This document shows, in pieces, positions 923 to 36,834 of a stretch of 40,917 nucleotides of DNA. The stretch covers positions 1 through 40,917 of IMG/VR virus record IMGVR_UViG_2721755676_000008. One strand, given 5' to 3'. The DNA comes from a virus. Taxonomy: Duplodnaviria; Heunggongvirae; Uroviricota; Caudoviricetes. The position numbers and the translations under genes are program-made. Below the pieces are notes generated by a model that did not search any database, was not told the origin of the DNA, and was given only the letters and a program-made list of their open reading frames with translations. How positions within the stretch are numbered: the first letter of the stretch is position 1; each line of letters opens with the position of its first letter.

Positions 923-3900
923 TATGCAAGCCTCACAATATAGTTAAATGCGATGTTTTTGACGGTGTTTTCCGCGTTACCAGCAGCGTTAACGGTGATG
1001 GTGTGTCCATGTGAACCAATCGCAACGGAGTGCGTATGAGCACCAATACCGACAGTATGTGCATGTGCGCCTGCGCTTGCAGCAGTGCCGGACAGCGAGT
1101 GGGTATGAGCACCATCTGATGATGTCTTCCCTGCATTACGAGTCTGGCCACTACCGCTTGTTGTGCTCATAATCCCCGCGCTTAGATTTGAAATCGCGGT
1201 ATAACCATTAGGGAAAATGCTCGTGTTCGTGCCACCAAATGCACCGGAACTCTTGTGTTGGTGCGCACCGGCACTATTTGCGGTCCCGCTAATACTATGG
1301 GTATGCGCCCCGGTGTTATTCGTGGATTTGGTTCCGTAATCAAACGACGATGTGGTTTTCGTCCCCAAATCCGTACTGGATGCGCTGGCGCTGTGGGTGT
1401 GCGATTTAATGCCGTCCTGTTCCTGAGATAATACGGCCCGACCACTGGCGGGCTTGCCCTTAATCGTCCAGCCACGCATATCAGGGATCACGCCTGACGG
1501 ATAAGCAACTGCAAGTTTCGGGTATGCAGATTTGTCAAAAGTCTGCCCCTGCATCAGGGCATAGCCAGACGGAACGGTATCTGATGGCCACGGGATTGGT
1601 GCACCGACTGGATAAAACTCTGCAGGAGGATGAGCCGAGGTGTAAAGCTGCGCCCACGGCGACCAGTTTGCGTCGGTCGTATCCCGTCGTGAACGAATAA
1701 ATGCCGGAGCATGAGCACCGCTTGTACCACTCCAGCCGATGAGTAACTCACCTTCGCCAACGGCTGTCATCCCTTTCAGGTGAATGATATTTCCATACGC
1801 TGTTGGATATCCGTTGTTATACACCTCGTATAACTCAAGACCTGCTGCCCCCTGCGTATTGTCTGTCAGCGCGGTTATCCGACCTTTTGAAGCCAGATTA
1901 ACTGATGATACTGCTGTTCCACCTGACGGTAACGCCCCGATCTCTGATGCCGTTGGCTTATTTCTGGAGTTATAGTCCCTTCGCCAGCCAGGTGAATAAT
2001 CTGTTCCGTGATTAATATAGGTAAACTGGGCGTTAGTTGTTCCACCACCAGTGGAGGTGGTCGGTGTGGTAATGCGGATCGTCATCGCTGACTTTATCCC
2101 CATTACTTCAATGACAGCTCCGGCGAGATGAATATTACCGCAGTCAGTATCAGTAATGATTTTATTATTGCCATAAGACCAGGAACCCTTGCACATCCAG
2201 TAGGGATGGTTAAATGCTCCCTGAGAATCCAGCCACTCGATAAACTGTGCAGTCGTCCAGTTTCCTGTTGTTGTGCTTACTGACCCACCGAAGGCACGGC
2301 AGGCACCAATATTTTTCGTAAAGGTGTCTTTGCCAGGGATATCCGCACCGTTCTGATCTTTCTGCAGACGTTTCTCAGCATTGTCATTGGCTGCTTTTAC
2401 TGCCTTTGGTGTCGCGGCAAGCGTTTCAGACGTGCTGTTGGTCGCGCTGCTTAGCTGGATTATCCCTTTCTGTGCTGTCGTTGCATCCTGTGCGGTGTAT
2501 TTCCCGTTAGCCAGGTCATACGCGGCCTTAACGGCTTTTGGTGTTGCCGCCAGTGACTCGGAAGTGCTGTTAGTCGCACTACTGAGCTGTACTATCCCCT
2601 TTTTCGTCGTGCTCGCATCCTCAAGCGCCACGGCGGATGCAATATCCTCTGCCCGTTTTGCTGCTGTCTCGGCGCGCGTTGCTGCGGATTCTGCCGTACT
2701 TTTGCTCTGTGCTGCCGCTGCCGCACTGCCAGCAGCCTCTGTCGCCTTCGTGGATGCCGTCGTGGCGCTGCCCCTCGCTGCTGACGCCTGTCTGGTCGCC
2801 TCATCTTTTGAAGCAGACGCCGATGATGCCGATGACGCCGCCGAACTGGCGGACGATGCGGCAGCCGTTTTTGAGGATTCTGCGCTGGTTTCCGACGCTT
2901 TCGCGTTCGTTTCGGATGTCTTCGCTGCGGAAGCAGACCTCGCTGCTGCGCTGGCCTGTTCAGTGGCTTCGCCAGCCTTCGTTGTGGCTGTTGAAGCGGA
3001 TGATGCGGCGCTTTCTGCCGATTTTCCGGCGGCGGTGGCACTGACTGCTGCCTCCTCTGCCTTAATGGACGCCTCACGGGCCGATGATGCAGCTGTTGTC
3101 TCAGAGTCTGCCGCAGCTGAGGCGCTCTGTTCCGCTGCCGTTTCAGAAGACTTAGCATTCGTCTCGGACGTTTTTGCCGCCTTCACGGAATTTCCTGCCG
3201 CCGTTGCCGAGGAGGCTGCACTGCTGGCGCTTGTGGAGGCGTTCGTTTCTGATGATTTTGCCGCCTCTTTGGAGGCCGCCGCATCCCGGGCTGAAGTGGC
3301 GGCTTCTGACGCTTTCGTCGTCGCAGTGGATGCAGAAGTGGCTGCTGATTGTTGTGACGCTGCGGCATTCGTTTCTGACGTTTTCGCCGCACCGGCACTG
3401 GTGGCCGCCGCGCTTTTTGAGGACTCTGCAGCGGCAGCACTTTTTGATGCTTCAGTGGCCTTTGTTGATGCCGTTCCTGCGCTGGAAGACGCCTCCTGAG
3501 CCGACGTCGCGGCCTGTCCGGCTGACGTGCTGGCTGCACGCGCTGAGCCTGCAGCATCAGTCGCATGGGTTGCCGCCTCACTGGCAGATGTGCCGGCATC
3601 ACTGGCTGACTTCTTCGCGGCTGCCGTGTTCTGTGCCACCGCGGACGCGTTACGCGCCACCTCTTCCACCATCAGTTCAAAACGGCGCAGAGCCTCCGGA
3701 CGGGCATCATCCTCCGTCATGGCACCGAGAAAATCATTCAGCGTACCGGGTCGGGAATCTTCATACACGGTGATGGTCCCGGCATGTGACGGCGGGAATC
3801 CTTCCACCAACAGAATAACGCTGTACTGACCGTACTCAACGTCCATGCTGTAACGCCCGGCTTCATCCGGATTTTCTGAGGCCAGCGTGTTCACCACCAC

Positions 3901-32812: not shown

Positions 32813-33033
32813 GCTGCACCTCCGAGATGCTTCATGTTTTTTCCGGAGCGAAAGGTTATAAGCGGCATACTGACGCGGTAATTACGGCCCAGCGGTTCAC
32901 AAATCACCTTCTGACATTCACGGTCCACCAGGCTAACACGTAGAACATGCCCTGCAGGTGTGGTGTACCACTGACCCGGACGAGGACAACGGAAAGTCTG
33001 ATTGGTAAACCGTTTGAAAATATTCCGGATCAT
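32809..33033 (-). CDS. Hypothetical small protein, translationally coupled between the Rha-like gene and the replication gene
   Basis: 74-aa ORF with start and stop overlapping both neighbours. Confidence 0.35.
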   Translation of the reverse strand: MIRNIFKRFTNQTFRCPRPGQWYTTPAGHVLRVSLVDRECQKVICEPLGRNYRVSMPLITFRSGKNMKHLGGAA

Positions 33034-34178
33034 TTGCGCCCCCTTACCTCTGAAGGGTTCAGCGACAAATTTATGAGGCAGGCCAGTGCCGAAGCATCAT
33101 TAATATAGTCATACAAGCTAACAGCCAGCGGAGATTCGGCTTTTGCCAACATAGGATAAAGCTGCTGCAGCCAGACCTGATGAATTGATGAAATGTAGGA
33201 ATAGAGAACGCTGGCGTTATGTGCAACGTCGCTCAGTACAGAGGGATTTGAAAGCTGTTTCTCCATCTGGTTAAAGGCATTGATGTATGCCTCTTTGAAC
33301 TGGGCAGCACGTTTACCCGTGAAACCCATAGCAAGAAACGCAAAGCCGTCGCGGGTTATTTGATAGCAAGGTAGTTTGCGGCCTGTGCAATCGGTGTAAT
33401 CACTCACCGAAAAATTGCGGGAAGTGAATGATGCAGAGCATTCAAGCGTGCGGATCTTTTTCAGTACATCGTCATGACGTTTGGAGAAGAAGTTGGCAAC
33501 AGCCAGGGATGAAGTAACAGCCTGACCATCAACGATGGCAATTTCAGGTTGAGTGAGGGTTGGGATCGTAGCCATGATGGCAGCCTCCGATAACAGTGAA
33601 TTACCTTCACCACCGGAAACGCCAATTTCGCTGGTGGTGAACTGAACGGGGTTGGCGTAACCGGCGTTATCGGAAACCGGCGCACCTTTCGGTGCCCCCG
33701 TCCAGCCCACCATAATTTGGGTGTGCACAGACGCAGACGATAAAAAAGACGCTGGCGCGTCATATATCGCCGATAACATTTCCAGGACGCCAATCCCGGC
33801 ACCCGCTTTATAAGGTGCCTGAACAGTGTAACGTCCCGGAATGGCAGAATCAATGTGCTGGTGGTCCTTCACACTCAACAAAATCACGCCTGAATTTCCA
33901 CAAAGGACTAAAGCACTCATGCGGGTAGTCTTTGCGAAGATAGATAACGCGCTGTGTTTCTGGCTCCCAACGAATAACATGGACATAAAGCCCTCTTCCG
34001 TCACGAAACCAGCGGTTAAGTTCCTGCACAACTCGCCCCCCACAGTCAGGTAAAGTTCTCTGTGGTTACTTACAGCCAGGTGATCTGGTAATCTGCATTC
34101 ATGCCGTAACAACAGGTGTTCAGCGACACTGACCACCAGCTGTTGCGACAAACGGTTATTTGCCGTTAAACTGTTCAT
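33030..34178 (-). CDS. Rha-family phage regulatory protein (Rha domain in the C-terminal half; N-terminal ~200 aa of unknown function)
   Basis: 382-aa ORF; Rha-like core around PEIAIVDGQAVTSSLAVANFFSKRHDDVLKKIRTLE; internal ATG at 33575 preceded by GGAGG could be an alternative start; ORF start overlaps the stop of the upstream gene. Confidence 0.55.
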   Translation of the reverse strand: MNSLTANNRLSQQLVVSVAEHLLLRHECRLPDHLAVSNHRELYLTVGGELCRNLTAGFVTEEGFMSMLFVGSQKHSALSIFAKTTRMSALVLCGNSGVILLSVKDHQHIDSAIPGRYTVQAPYKAGAGIGVLEMLSAIYDAPASFLSSASVHTQIMVGWTGAPKGAPVSDNAGYANPVQFTTSEIGVSGGEGNSLLSEAAIMATIPTLTQPEIAIVDGQAVTSSLAVANFFSKRHDDVLKKIRTLECSASFTSRNFSVSDYTDCTGRKLPCYQITRDGFAFLAMGFTGKRAAQFKEAYINAFNQMEKQLSNPSVLSDVAHNASVLYSYISSIHQVWLQQLYPMLAKAESPLAVSLYDYINDASALACLINLSLNPSEVRGRK

Positions 34179-34726
34179 GCGTTAGTTTCTCCACAGACAC
34201 AAAACGCCACGACGCCCGGAGCTGCACACTCGCGGGCGTCACTCTTTTCTGGAGCGCAGAAGATTTTGTAGACCAGTGCTGCATGCTCCTGGAGCTTCGA
34301 AATTGACAGATACAACTCATCATTAATTGCTGTCTGCTCGTGTGGCTCCACGACCCCATCTTCGATTGCCGAACGAATCTGCTTTGAGTAATTCCCGATC
34401 TGTTCGATGACTTCCAGCAGGCGCTGGTTTATATCGGCGTTCTCTACTTCCTCAATTTCAGGAAGCGATACGAACACCCCACCAGCAGATTGTGCGACAG
34501 CATCCGCAATGTAGTGAGTGCCAGCCGCGCGCTGTAAAACCATTGCCCATCCCAGCGGGAAAATCTGATCGCCATCTGCACGAAGGCGGTTGAATAAAGC
34601 GTTCTCTGTTACATCCAGCCAGTTAGCAGCTTCAGCGTAACCCCCAGGCAATGCCGCGATAGTTTTTCTGACAGCTTTCACGTACCACTCAGGTTGTTTT
34701 TCCACTTTCCAATGATGCTTACCCAC
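34175..34726 (-). CDS. CII-like early regulator (in the cII position, directly downstream of cro)
   Basis: 183-aa ORF overlapping the cro-like stop; assigned mainly by position. Confidence 0.4.
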   Translation of the reverse strand: MGKHHWKVEKQPEWYVKAVRKTIAALPGGYAEAANWLDVTENALFNRLRADGDQIFPLGWAMVLQRAAGTHYIADAVAQSAGGVFVSLPEIEEVENADINQRLLEVIEQIGNYSKQIRSAIEDGVVEPHEQTAINDELYLSISKLQEHAALVYKIFCAPEKSDARECAAPGVVAFCVCGETNA

Positions 34727-34979
34727 GGCTTACCTCCTGTTCCTGTGGTTTAAACCCATTCTGGTTTTGGCTAGATTGAAAACGTGCCGGATAAAGAATC
34801 TGCATTTCGCTGATTTCACCCTTAAAAAAATTGGCCAGACGTTCTGCAAGATCGATAGATGGAATTTGTTCCAGTCTTTCAATACGACTCAGCGTCGCTG
34901 GATTGACCTGAACGCCCGCAGCAACATGCTGCAAAGTAAATCCGTGCGCCTTACGCACATTCCGTAATGGTGATTGCAT
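34719..34979 (-). CDS. cro: Cro-like HTH repressor
   Basis: 86-aa ORF divergent from cI; HTH HGFTLQHVAAGVQVNPATLSRIE. Confidence 0.7.
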   Translation of the reverse strand: MQSPLRNVRKAHGFTLQHVAAGVQVNPATLSRIERLEQIPSIDLAERLANFFKGEISEMQILYPARFQSSQNQNGFKPQEQEVSRG

Positions 34980-35076
34980 ATAACCTCCACATATTGCGTG
35001 ATGAGCATATTATTTCACGCAAATATTTTGCGCAAGTTGATTTGCTTAACGCGCAATAAAGAAATGTAATAAACGC
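34980..35076. promoter_or_regulatory. Immunity-region operator/promoter (oR with divergent pRM/pR-like promoters)
   Basis: 97-bp divergent intergenic region with repeated TTGCG / CGCAA half-sites (ttgcgtga, tcacgcaa-atatt-ttgcgcaa, taacgcgcaa) and AT-rich -10-like hexamers. Confidence 0.6.
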
Positions 35077-35769
35077 ATGAACATAGGAAATCGAGTCAGA
35101 CAACTTCGCCAGGCGAAGAACATGAAAATCGCCGATCTCGCTGAAGCAATAGGAGTGGATGCGGCGAATATCTCGCGCCTCGAAACAGGTAAGCAGAAAC
35201 AATTCACTGAACAAGCCCTGAGTAATATTGCCAGGAGCTTAGGTGTTGATATTGCTGATCTCTTTACCTCAGACCTCAAAAGTAATACTGTATGTAAAAA
35301 CAGTATTAGTGAGGATGTTGCGCAGGTGAAGGATGTATTCCGTATTGAAATGCTGGATGTCAGTGCCAGTGCGGGAAATGGCCTTATCCAGGGCGGTGAT
35401 GTCATTGATGTGATTCATGCCATTGAATACAGAACTGATAATGCTGTATCGATGTTTGGTGGACGACCAGCAAATCACATTAAAGTTATCAACGTTCGTG
35501 GGGACAGTATGTGTCCAACCATTGAGCCAGGAGATCTCATCTTCGTTGATATCAGTATCAATCAGTTTGATGGGGATGGTATATATGTATTTGGTTTTGA
35601 TGATAAAATTTACGTCAAACGACTGCAAATGATACCTGATAAACTGCTGGTAATTTCTGATAATCAGATTTACCGCGAATGGGGAATTACCAGCGAAAAC
35701 GAACACCGGTTTATGGTCTTTGGAAAGGTCTTAATCAGTCAGTCACAAACCCTTAAGCGACACAATTAA
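35077..35769 (+). CDS. cI: CI-type prophage repressor (HTH plus S24 LexA-like peptidase domain)
   Basis: 230-aa ORF; N-terminal HTH (IADLAEAIGVDAANISRLETGK); C-terminal S24 peptidase motifs (VRGDSMCPTIEPGDLIFVD, catalytic Lys in FGKV). Confidence 0.85.
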   Translation: MNIGNRVRQLRQAKNMKIADLAEAIGVDAANISRLETGKQKQFTEQALSNIARSLGVDIADLFTSDLKSNTVCKNSISEDVAQVKDVFRIEMLDVSASAGNGLIQGGDVIDVIHAIEYRTDNAVSMFGGRPANHIKVINVRGDSMCPTIEPGDLIFVDISINQFDGDGIYVFGFDDKIYVKRLQMIPDKLLVISDNQIYREWGITSENEHRFMVFGKVLISQSQTLKRHN

Positions 35770-35790
35770 CCCCCTACCTCAACATCAATT

Positions 35791-35814
35791 AGCCACCAGA
35801 AGGTGGCTTTTCAT
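35791..35814 (+). terminator. Rho-independent terminator after cI
   Basis: agccacc-agaa-ggtggct followed by TTTTC, 22 bp after the cI stop. Confidence 0.6.
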
Positions 35815-35819
35815 TACTC

Positions 35820-35880
35820 ACGCTATTGCATGTCTCGCAATAAAATACTTGCACGTTACGCAATTTCATTTTATCTTTCT
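35820..35880. promoter_or_regulatory. Candidate oL/pL-like operator region
   Basis: attgcatgtctcgcaat and ttgcacgttacgcaat carry the same TTGC / CGCAA half-sites as the cI-cro operators, just downstream of the cI terminator. Confidence 0.35.
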
Positions 35881-36324
35881 TTCCAGACCAACAAACAAGG
35901 TCCTGACAAAATTTGGTTGTAACACGGCGTATGGCACATGCGTCGTTAGCGGTCTGGGGACGTTAAAGGGGACAATCCACTCCTTGCTCGGGCAAACAAA
36001 CCAGGTAGCCGGAATGTGCAAGTCAATGAGGATGCTGATAAGACGCCTAACCAGCGTGGCGATTCGGTTTGACGCCTGGGAAGAGACCAGGGTGCAACGA
36101 TGAGGGCATTTATGGAGCCGCGACAAAGTGTGGTGCCATAACTGGCTAAGTGCTCTCAGCGTTGTGGTAATCCGCGAAATGGCGCGGCGGTAAGTATGGC
36201 GGGGTTATCCTTACCCCATTAGTGGCACCGGGTTGTCAGGTTGACCATACGCTTAAGTGACAACCCCACCACAACAGCCACTGCTTTGGCGGTACCAGTT
36301 TGTACACTTGCTTCCGGCTGGTAC

Positions 36325-36423
36325 CGCTCTTTTTACAAAACAGAGAAGAGCATCACCGGACGACGGGCTCATAACCCAATCCACCCGGGCGGCTGCCACC
36401 GCAGGTGTTCTTCTCTGTTTTGT
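36325..36423 (+). promoter_or_regulatory. boxA-like motif followed by a long stem-loop in the early-left leader (candidate nut/put-like RNA element)
   Basis: CGCTCTTTTTACAA (36325-36338) resembles boxA; arms 36335-36352 (acaaaacagagaagagca) and 36406-36423 (tgttcttctctgttttgt) are complementary over 18 nt with one G-U; 53-nt GC-rich loop. Confidence 0.35.
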
Positions 36424-36471
36424 GGAGAAACCAACCGACCTTGCAGGGTCGATATGATGAGGAGCAGCAAA

Positions 36472-36834
36472 ATGGCTAGCGAACGCAGTACTGATGTGCA
36501 GGCATTTATCGGGGAGCTGGACGGCGGCGTATTTGAAACCAAAATCGGCGCAGTTCTCAGTGAAGTCGCTTCCGGTGTGATGAACACGAAAACCAAAGGT
36601 AAGGTCTCGCTCAACCTGGAAATCGAACCGTTTGATGAGAACCGTGTGAAAATCAAACACAAACTCTCATATGTTCGCCCGACTAACCGCGGGAAAATTT
36701 CCGAAGAAGACACCACCGAAACGCCGATGTATGTCAATCGCGGTGGTCGCCTGACTATTCTGCAGGAAGACCAGGGACAATTACTGACTCTTGCCGGTGA
36801 ACCTGACGGAAAACTCCGCGCAGCAGGTCATTAA
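36472..36834 (+). CDS. YfdP-like protein (unknown function)
   Basis: ORF 36241-36834; probable start ATG 36472 (MASERSTD...) preceded by GAGGAG, giving 120 aa; first gene of the operon downstream of cI. Confidence 0.55.
   Translation: MASERSTDVQAFIGELDGGVFETKIGAVLSEVASGVMNTKTKGKVSLNLEIEPFDENRVKIKHKLSYVRPTNRGKISEEDTTETPMYVNRGGRLTILQEDQGQLLTLAGEPDGKLRAAGH

Follow-up and report, generated by a model that had tools for sequence, protein, structure and literature searches.

What does a lambdoid prophage make from the interval between its repressor gene and its first early-left gene? The question is posed by 40,917 nucleotides (nt) of viral DNA (Caudoviricetes; IMG/VR record IMGVR_UViG_2721755676_000008, positions 1 to 40,917), here called the window, in which about 650 bp (35815-36471) separate the terminator of the cI repressor gene from yfdP. 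An earlier note, made from the letters of this DNA, had described the interval as an untranslated, structured leader with a boxA-like motif and a perfect 18-nt arm pair, and had offered three explanations: a put-like RNA antiterminator, a riboregulator of the downstream operon, or an independent small RNA (sRNA). We conclude that the interval is the ~585-nt untranslated leader of a cI-controlled, PL-type (early-left) operon and that the locus is a DicF-type prophage leader. Such loci are a known kind; new here are three conserved RNA structures that have no Rfam match at gathering score, one of them carrying a mimic of the initiator transfer RNA (tRNA). The note had missed the homology to the DicF locus, the mimic of initiator tRNA and the two large RNA domains that lie upstream. 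It had rightly placed the leader where lambdoid phages have nutL and rightly called it rich in local complementarity: the whole leader folds better than shuffled sequences (z = -4.7). From 5' to 3', the plus strand holds module A (35920-36160), module C (36161-36273), a DicF-type hairpin with a U-tract (36284-36334) and a long hairpin built around a three-way junction (36335-36423).

Homology to the dicBF leader of the Qin prophage

Window positions 36161-36334 are homologous to the ydfC-dicB spacer of the Qin prophage of Escherichia coli K-12. The first 123 nt (36161-36283) are 87-90% identical to the sequence immediately 5' of DicF in K-12 Qin (87%) and in an O157 prophage, and the hairpin that follows aligns to the Qin DicF terminator with the common words UUUGGCGGUA.CAGUUU and CCGC.CUUUUU. 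The alignment is colinear and places the window hairpin in the genomic slot of DicF: an immunity repressor gene and a PL-type promoter lie upstream, the conserved 5' domain known from the 190-nt DicF precursor adjoins it on the 5' side, and the next protein gene follows. Like the dicBF leader, the window has a repressor-controlled PL-like promoter followed by a long untranslated stretch, a structured domain of ~110 nt (87% identity) 5' of a U-tract hairpin that starts UUUGGCGG and ends CCGCC-UUUUU, and a long-range stem between the terminator and the first downstream gene. In Qin, the stem predicted after the DicF terminator ends just before the start region of dicB, in parallel to the long hairpin that precedes yfdP. 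The two leaders differ in that the window has module A upstream instead of the small genes ydfABC, yfdP rather than dicB downstream, and a tRNA-fMet-like arm on the post-terminator stem. BLAST found parts of the leader in 4813 of the 5426 complete E. coli genomes, and all of it in about 1000. Matches among phage records are mosaic, with separate segments matching separate phages.

The DicF-like hairpin (UUUGGCGGUACCAG...CUGGUACCGCU) is an intrinsic terminator. Its 13-bp stem (36288-36300 with 36316-36328; -21.2 kcal/mol, z = -5.2) is followed by the tail CUUUUU (36329-36334), and the span 36288-36334 thus has the stable GC-rich hairpin and adjoining U-tract that define such terminators. A simple terminator scan missed it only because its loop exceeds 8 nt. 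The string CGCTCTTTTTACAA, which the earlier note had read as a boxA-like motif (36325-36338), is indeed present and falls across this element: its first four bases end the 3' arm of the terminator, the next six are the CUUUUU tail, and ACAA begins the long stem. Because it is terminator stem and tail sequence, homologous to the DicF terminator, it is not an independent boxA.

The Qin locus also provides a precedent for the fate of such a transcript. The dicBp transcript yields a 53-nt DicF, with a 5' end made by RNase E, and a 190-nt DicF, with a 5' end made by RNase III; transcripts of ydfABC-dicF end at the DicF terminator, and longer species read through to dicB-ydfD (PMC10448788). When RNase III cuts 3' of the terminator, a 72-nt form results (PMC5069750). 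Module C together with DicF corresponds to the 190-nt species, whose computed start (~2496-2500 of the Qin sequence L004, in which the Rfam DicF model, RF00039, matches 2633-2684 with 76.7 bits) falls within the 3' strand of a long helix that is predicted immediately upstream of module C. Its equivalent in the window is the long-range helix H6 of module A (36099-36107 with 36147-36156; predicted, z = -4.4).

A probable processed small RNA with read-through into yfdP

We propose, as a reading that we find probable rather than assured, that the leader is of the dicBF type and yields one or more processed sRNAs by termination and cleavage by RNases III and E, with read-through into yfdP. Once cI repression is lifted, RNA polymerase would start near 35885, downstream of a putative PL promoter on the plus strand (35849-35877) with a -35 element TTGCAC (35849-35854), a 17-nt spacer and a -10 element TATCTT (35872-35877). 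The second oL operator (35849) overlaps the -35 element, and the proposed position is analogous to those of dicBp and lambda PL (PMC10448788). Part of the transcripts would stop at the terminator (36334) and give a non-coding RNA of ~450 nt, which RNase III could cut at the long helices, especially at H6 just 5' of module C, and RNase E could cut further. The products would be stable sRNAs, the counterparts of the 190-nt DicF and of its short species. Transcripts that read through would carry a 20-bp stem right after the U-tract, which resembles a substrate of RNase III in offering about two turns of mostly uninterrupted double-stranded RNA, conserved with compensatory changes, as a predicted site. 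Cleavage in this stem would detach the yfdP-yfdQ-yfdR mRNA from the sRNA portion, and would set the 5' end of yfdP and probably its translation. It is by analogy with Qin that we suggest these enzymes and a split of the transcripts between those that terminate and those that read through.

Several points weigh against this proposal. The promoter, the efficiency of the terminator and the cleavage sites in this phage are all inferred, and a consensus promoter scan of the window did not pick up PL. The window hairpin scores below the RF00039 gathering score of 48 (11.8 bits, E = 1.9, model positions 12-52, in a 91-nt search), and wider searches gave no match to this family; the hairpin lacks the 5' 11 nt of DicF and has a different loop. 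Nor is a role as a DicF-type regulator borne out by the prediction of pairing with ftsZ, which fails: the predicted duplex with positions -60 to +30 of ftsZ did not surpass those with shuffled targets, 97% of which scored at least as well, and the duplex of K-12 DicF beat 97% of shuffles in the same test. Thus, duplex prediction does not support ftsZ as a target of the window hairpin. Furthermore, the loops and junctions of modules A and C and the tRNA-fMet-like loop of the long hairpin are very highly conserved. Conservation of unpaired nucleotides this strong exceeds what a passive scaffold would need and therefore keeps alive three other explanations, in which the leader acts as an antiterminator, as a tRNA decoy or as an attenuator. 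Literature searches on yfdP and on DicF-like sequences returned nothing relevant.

The hairpin slot after module C is hypervariable. Its contents across 71 loci include the canonical DicF, the short O157 form, the form found in the window, forms with large loops, and the unrelated hairpin of phage P1. In one viral contig (L050), the loop of the slot hairpin, CAGUUUCUCUCCC, is an 11-nt perfect complement of the ribosome-binding region of ftsZ, GGAGAGAAACU, and matches it better than K-12 DicF does; because of this complementarity, we suggest that the slot evolves new target specificities. We also observed enlarged terminator loops in Trabulsiella, Erwinia, Izhakiella and a viral contig (L018, L020, L021 and L065), which contain AGGAG, a gap of 8-10 nt, and ATG TTC T(A/G)C CG..., which continues into the 3' arm. 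These loops look like leader-peptide attenuators, and their frame is not conserved.

Module C, a conserved domain directly 5' of the terminator

Module C is a cloverleaf-like four-way junction with a closing stem (36161-36168 with 36266-36273) and three hairpins: P2 (36172-36176 with 36183-36187), P3 (a GGGG/CCCC stem with a UCCU loop motif) and P4 (36235-36243 with 36263-36271, as mapped from the columns of alignment A3). The junction strand GUAUGG (36194-36199) pairs with CCAUAC in the P4 loop to form a pseudoknot. The minimum free energy fold gives the same four helices, and the covariance model of the module (R1) finds one copy in the window, at 146.6 bits. Scanning viral contigs, and contigs from one genome per species, for a pattern of the module yielded 71 distinct variants from Escherichia, Shigella, Citrobacter, Trabulsiella, Erwinia, Izhakiella and P1-like phages, and in all of them the module stands directly 5' of a hairpin with a U-tract. 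Among 23 sequences, 95% of cells were paired, with nine two-sided pair changes against one to three in slid controls. One position of the third hairpin is G-C, C-G, A-U or U-A in different sequences, and the pseudoknot covaries to GCAUGG/CCAUGC in P1. RNAalifold on a MAFFT alignment returned a poor consensus in which the variable P3 hairpin was misaligned, and we used hand-defined helices with slid controls instead.

Two further observations concern the variation and range of the module. The loop of the third hairpin (36201-36217 and its homologs) keeps a pyrimidine motif, UCCU or CCUCC, while stem and loop length vary, and recalls anti-Shine-Dalgarno seeds. A match of 84.5% identity was found in the Actinobacillus phage vB_Apl-pPE4 (PP818812.1, 6147-6262), whose host belongs to the Pasteurellaceae, outside the Enterobacterales.

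The presence of a conserved, pseudoknotted domain immediately 5' of the terminator in every member of the family raises the possibility of a sensor-controlled attenuator, in which module C would act like an aptamer for a metabolite, a tRNA or a protein and its folding would gate the DicF-type terminator, and hence yfdP and the operon. Two alternative pairings could serve such a switch. The junction word GGCGGUA (GCGGUA at 36188-36193) repeats the start of the 5' arm of the terminator (36289-36294), and the 3' arm could pair with either. In addition, GUUG (36161-36164) can pair with CAAC at 36094-36097, which extends H6, or with CAAC at 36270-36273 in the closing stem of module C. However, the alternative anti-terminator pairing has no covariation support, P1 has module C after Pban together with an unrelated terminator hairpin that lacks the GGCGG repeat, and no Rfam riboswitch family matches the leader. 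The 190-nt RNA of module C plus DicF also accumulates stably in K-12, as fits a product better than a switch. We consider an attenuator very improbable. Rfam searches of the leader with gathering and with permissive thresholds, a check that the earlier note had proposed, likewise returned no family that covers it, and the sole weak match was DicF.

Module A and the possibility of antitermination

The 5' part of the leader, module A, is a pseudoknotted RNA domain defined by a covariance model and by covariation. The model (R2) matches 35920-36100 of the window with 152 bits. Besides H6, the module has helix H1 (35925-35932 with 35938-35945), a hairpin CCUGG-GAAGAGA-CCAGG, and a hairpin ACGC-CUAACCA-GCGU whose loop AACC pairs with a downstream GGUU to form an H-type pseudoknot. 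This pairing is CACC/GGUG elsewhere, a compensatory change relative to the window. The strands AGCGGUC, GGUAGCCGGAAUGUGCAAG and GGCGAU.CGGUGUGAC are invariant. In 23 diverse sequences, 96.5% of cells were paired and there were 11 two-sided pair changes, against none to five in slid controls. Scanning viral contigs with the most conserved 19-mer yielded 104 unique variants, which form 47 clusters below 93% identity.

Module A often keeps company with tRNA genes. It matches P1 at 78%, between trnI and ban, and epsilon15-like phages at 83%, there just 5' of a tRNA-Arg gene. Among 107 unique contexts, the next element is tRNA-Arg(UCU) in 21 and module C in 18, and a tRNA with a CAU anticodon (annotated as tRNA-Ile2 in the P1 record) precedes the module in 13. 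We also noted that the slot after ...AGUGCUCUCAGCGUUGUGG holds alternative cassettes: module C, a structured insert of ~115 nt of the mEp460 type, an insert of the L170 type, or a genuine tRNA-Arg(UCU) (examples are L001, which is mEp460, at 3395-3530; L170, L188 and L238; and L002, L156, L158 and L215). The stem GUUGUGG/CCACAAC closes each cassette other than the tRNA, which has an acceptor stem of its own (GUGGCAU/AUGCCAC) that overlaps this GUGG. The ban leader of P1, with its annotated dicF-like region and the genes trnA, trnT and trnI, is likewise long and has both modules, with module C and a terminator hairpin after Pban, and it mixes tRNAs with structured RNAs. It differs from the window in that the two modules stand in reverse order, separated by 2.3 kb that include tRNA genes and tciABC, and in lacking a tRNA-fMet-like hairpin.

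How does polymerase pass the terminator that separates PL from yfdP? In lambda, nutL lies in the same place, after PL and ahead of the first early-left gene, and the window has a sequence that resembles boxA (CGCTCTT). We rejected a nut site of the lambda type: the boxA-like string overlaps the terminator, the structure that follows is an 89-nt three-way junction, there is no 15-nt hairpin like boxB, with its 5-bp stem and GNRA-like pentaloop, and the operon head encodes no N-like protein. That no N-like, Arg-rich protein could be recognized had been pointed out before and agrees with our data, in which yfdP belongs to phrog_204, a family of unknown function, and has no Arg-rich motif at its N-terminus. 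Among the window proteins, in a search for N that was not exhaustive, we found only a Q-like late antiterminator. The same layout is seen in mEp460 and in Stx2a_1447, in both likewise without N, and in Citrobacter, Erwinia and Izhakiella loci.

An operon head without an N-like gene, a strong terminator ahead of its first gene, and related N-less phages of the same layout are what would be expected if module A, module C or both bound the transcribing polymerase as an RNA-only, put-like element and carried it through the DicF-type and later terminators in place of N. The N-less lambdoid phages HK022 and HK639 do have such a structured RNA, which closely follows PL and precedes terminators. Module A begins ~10-40 nt after the predicted start in several phages. 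In two viral contigs with HK022-like operators (TACTnTTGGTAC...; L166 and L173), it stands downstream of PL, at the place where HK022 has putL (L006, 6300-6400, minus strand). By eye, H1 also shares ACGGCG...CAUGCGUCG with stem I of put, including the same G.U pair, and module C is always directly 5' of a terminator hairpin, P1 included.

The comparison with put, which rests on the GenBank records of HK022 and HK639 and on PMC9378689, nonetheless fails in most respects. The put RNAs are ~70-126 nt long and comprise a triplex and two or three stem-loops; modules A and C exceed them in size, have other folds, and went undetected in reciprocal model searches. Covariance models of the two modules matched neither the putL of HK022 nor the one annotated in HK639, for module A also with the filters switched off, and homology to put was rejected on this ground and on that of key residues. 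The conserved functional residues of put form an A9-G35 platform, with G35 essential, and a C26-G29 bulge with U28 (PMC9378689). In module A, the position after H1 is C, U or A rather than the essential G35, and CAUG is paired rather than bulged. Nor is module A tied to promoters: it adjoins a tRNA gene, not a promoter, in 34 of the 107 contexts, and in P1 it lies 2.3 kb downstream of the promoter, past the first terminator. As candidates for an analogue of putR, further copies of both modules were sought with the covariance models in the window's rightward operon, and none was found. Modules A and C do lie upstream of the terminator and close to the early promoter here. The long hairpin, which includes the stem flagged in the earlier note, lies 3' of it and therefore cannot act on that terminator as a put or nut element. 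We regard antitermination by these RNAs as unlikely. Of the three explanations first offered, the put-like antiterminator thus fails on model searches and key residues, and an sRNA or riboregulator comes close to the dicBF-type leader that we favor.

The long hairpin and its likeness to initiator tRNA

The long hairpin spans 89 nt (-43.5 kcal/mol, z = -7.1). The 18-nt arm pair described earlier (36335-36352 with 36406-36423) is perfectly complementary and extends to a basal stem of 20 bp that includes two G.U pairs (36335-36354 with 36404-36423). The 53 nt that it encloses had been taken for a GC-rich loop; they form two further helices, and hence a three-way junction, with arm 1 at 36356-36360/36384-36388, capped by GGG-CUCAUAA-CCC (36365-36377), and arm 2 at 36389-36392/36399-36402. 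The hairpin ends 48 nt ahead of the ATG of yfdP (36472), close to the ~50 nt first estimated. Conservation of the stem pairing across homologous prophages, a test that had been suggested for it, was evident in a set of 16 that came from metagenomic phages and from E. coli, Citrobacter, Erwinia and Izhakiella: it had 93.6% of cells paired, with nine two-sided changes against none to three in slid controls.

The tip of arm 1, CGGGCTCATAACCC, is identical to the anticodon stem-loop of the E. coli initiator tRNA-fMet encoded by metZ. The 14 nt in common, CGGGCUCAUAACCC, comprise three G:C pairs and the loop CUCAUAA. Among 30 unique hairpin variants, which we gathered with an anchor outside the tRNA-like motif, this is the most conserved part of the hairpin: 23 variants have the exact 14-mer and another four have it with one base change. 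The copy in the window stands inside an mRNA-leader hairpin and lacks the acceptor, D and T arms of a tRNA. ARAGORN called no tRNA in the window and a permissive Rfam search of 35700-36600 found no match to the tRNA family (RF00005). The Citrobacter, Erwinia, Izhakiella and Trabulsiella loci have no tRNA genes either, despite T-arm-like words.

Initiator tRNA presents its anticodon stem-loop to methionyl-tRNA synthetase (MetRS), initiation factor 3 (IF3) and the P site of the 30S subunit. The leader might supply decoys, with a hairpin tip that copies the initiator anticodon arm and a module C that forms a cloverleaf in the slot that a real tRNA-Arg occupies in related phages, such that RNAs produced early upon induction titrate or divert host factors that recognize tRNA. 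The candidate targets are MetRS, IF3, the 30S P site and anticodon nucleases of the VapC type; enteric VapC toxins cleave tRNA-fMet in its anticodon stem-loop (PMC7180214). Beyond the 14-nt identity, the occupancy of the slot after module A, by tRNA-Arg(UCU) in some contexts and by module C or cassettes closed by GUUGUGG/CCACAAC in others, and the four-way junction of module C with its junction-loop pseudoknot are consistent with this idea. However, the likeness to tRNA-fMet is confined to three G:C pairs and a loop, the binding of a nuclease or factor is purely hypothetical, and the hairpin tip could be the relic of a former tRNA-Met cassette. A literature search on initiator-tRNA mimics in prophages found no report that could serve as precedent. 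We think it quite unlikely that the RNAs work as decoys.

A broader generalization is also conceivable and, in our judgment, improbable. The early-left leaders of a large class of N-less lambdoid prophages, and the related ones of P1 and epsilon15-like phages, might be arrays of tRNA-like or tRNA-mimicking RNAs (a cloverleaf in a tRNA slot and a hairpin with the initiator anticodon arm) that are the first to be expressed upon induction and act on the host machinery that recognizes tRNA, for instance as decoys for VapC-type anticodon nucleases. Otherwise, module A or C might represent an RNA-only antiterminator of a class not recognized before and unrelated in sequence to put.

Coding potential of the leader

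The interval could instead encode one or more small proteins, as suggested by the hypothetical proteins annotated here in the GenBank records of mEp460 and other phages. The longer open reading frames (ORFs) do not support this. The 84- and 86-amino-acid ORFs at 35849-36103 (plus strand) and 35866-36126 (minus strand) already have stops or frameshifts in Citrobacter, and the 66-amino-acid ORF at 36257-36457 loses its frame to a frameshift in Izhakiella and meets an early stop in Trabulsiella. Coding by all three was rejected. The nucleotide sequence and base pairs are retained where these ORFs are broken, and yfdP is intact in all relatives compared (56-74% amino-acid identity). The original impression that no convincing ORF occupies the ~650 bp thus holds.

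A leader mini-ORF is the remaining candidate (36422-36457, plus strand; GUG GAG AAA CCA ACC ... UGA). It would encode MEKPTDLAGSI in 11 codons, from a start within the final bases of the long stem to an end 1 nt before the Shine-Dalgarno (SD) sequence of yfdP. Its first five codons, (A/G)UG GAG AAA CYW AC, are kept in Citrobacter, Erwinia and Izhakiella and in the loci L050, L197 and L212. Beyond this start the sequence is variable and the length ranges from 6 to 14 codons. The mini-ORF has no SD sequence, its start lies inside the 20-bp stem, and its conservation is limited to the first 14 nt. A protein-coding function for the interval appears highly unlikely to us. Within the same region, GGAGAAAC resembles the ftsZ leader.

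Genomic setting and other RNA elements

The leader lies beside a lambdoid immunity region. The S24-type CI repressor is encoded on the plus strand (35077-35769; ORF list with Pfam and PHROGs) and is followed by a terminator (35791-35815, plus strand; terminator scan and sequence) made of a 7-bp hairpin, AGCCACC/GGTGGCT, and a T run. On the minus strand are a Cro-like gene (34719-34979), a CII-like gene (34175-34726) and a 382-amino-acid ORF with Pfam matches to Ash and Rha (33030-34178). Farther along, the rightward operon encodes an O-like replication protein, RusA and the Q-like late antiterminator (27549-28343, minus strand). A pattern search for TTGC-N7-GCAA returned five sites in the 40.9 kb, three of them in the immunity region: one at 35042 (oR) and two that form oL on the plus strand (35826-35840 and 35849-35863). 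There are thus operators on both sides in this cI/cro/cII region. Downstream of the leader, yfdP (36459-36834, plus strand; ORF list, Pfam/PHROGs and RefSeq name) has the SD sequence GAGGAG at 36459-36464 and encodes 120 amino acids. It is the first protein gene of the early-left operon and is followed by yfdQ (DUF2303) and yfdR (HD domain).

We also identified three other RNA elements in the window, all on the minus strand. Rfam matches to the C4 antisense RNA (33630-33717, 82.8 bits) and to the Hfq-binding RNA isrK (33742-33818, 63.7 bits) fall inside the ORF at 33030-34178. The N-terminal part of this ORF, including its match to Ash, may be the translated RNA region of an antirepressor control module of the P1/P22 type. 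A full-length match to IS009, a predicted sRNA family of E. coli, lies at the far end of the prophage (381-579, 223.6 bits).

Implications for DicF-type loci and N-less phages

Public RNA libraries hold a single family for loci of this kind, the 53-nt DicF. Conservation is higher in the structured 5' domain of the 190-nt species than in the sRNA hairpin, whose slot is hypervariable, and both the search for DicF-type loci and their interpretation should change accordingly. The modules recur in P1, in Stx-converting phages, in phages of Shigella and Salmonella, and in prophages of Citrobacter, Erwinia and Izhakiella, and the three structures supported by covariation are candidates for inclusion in RNA family libraries. 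The anticodon-arm mimic is directly testable against toxins that cleave tRNA-fMet and against translation-initiation factors. Finally, the leader offers a concrete system in which to learn how N-less lambdoid phages pass the terminator that precedes their first early-left gene.

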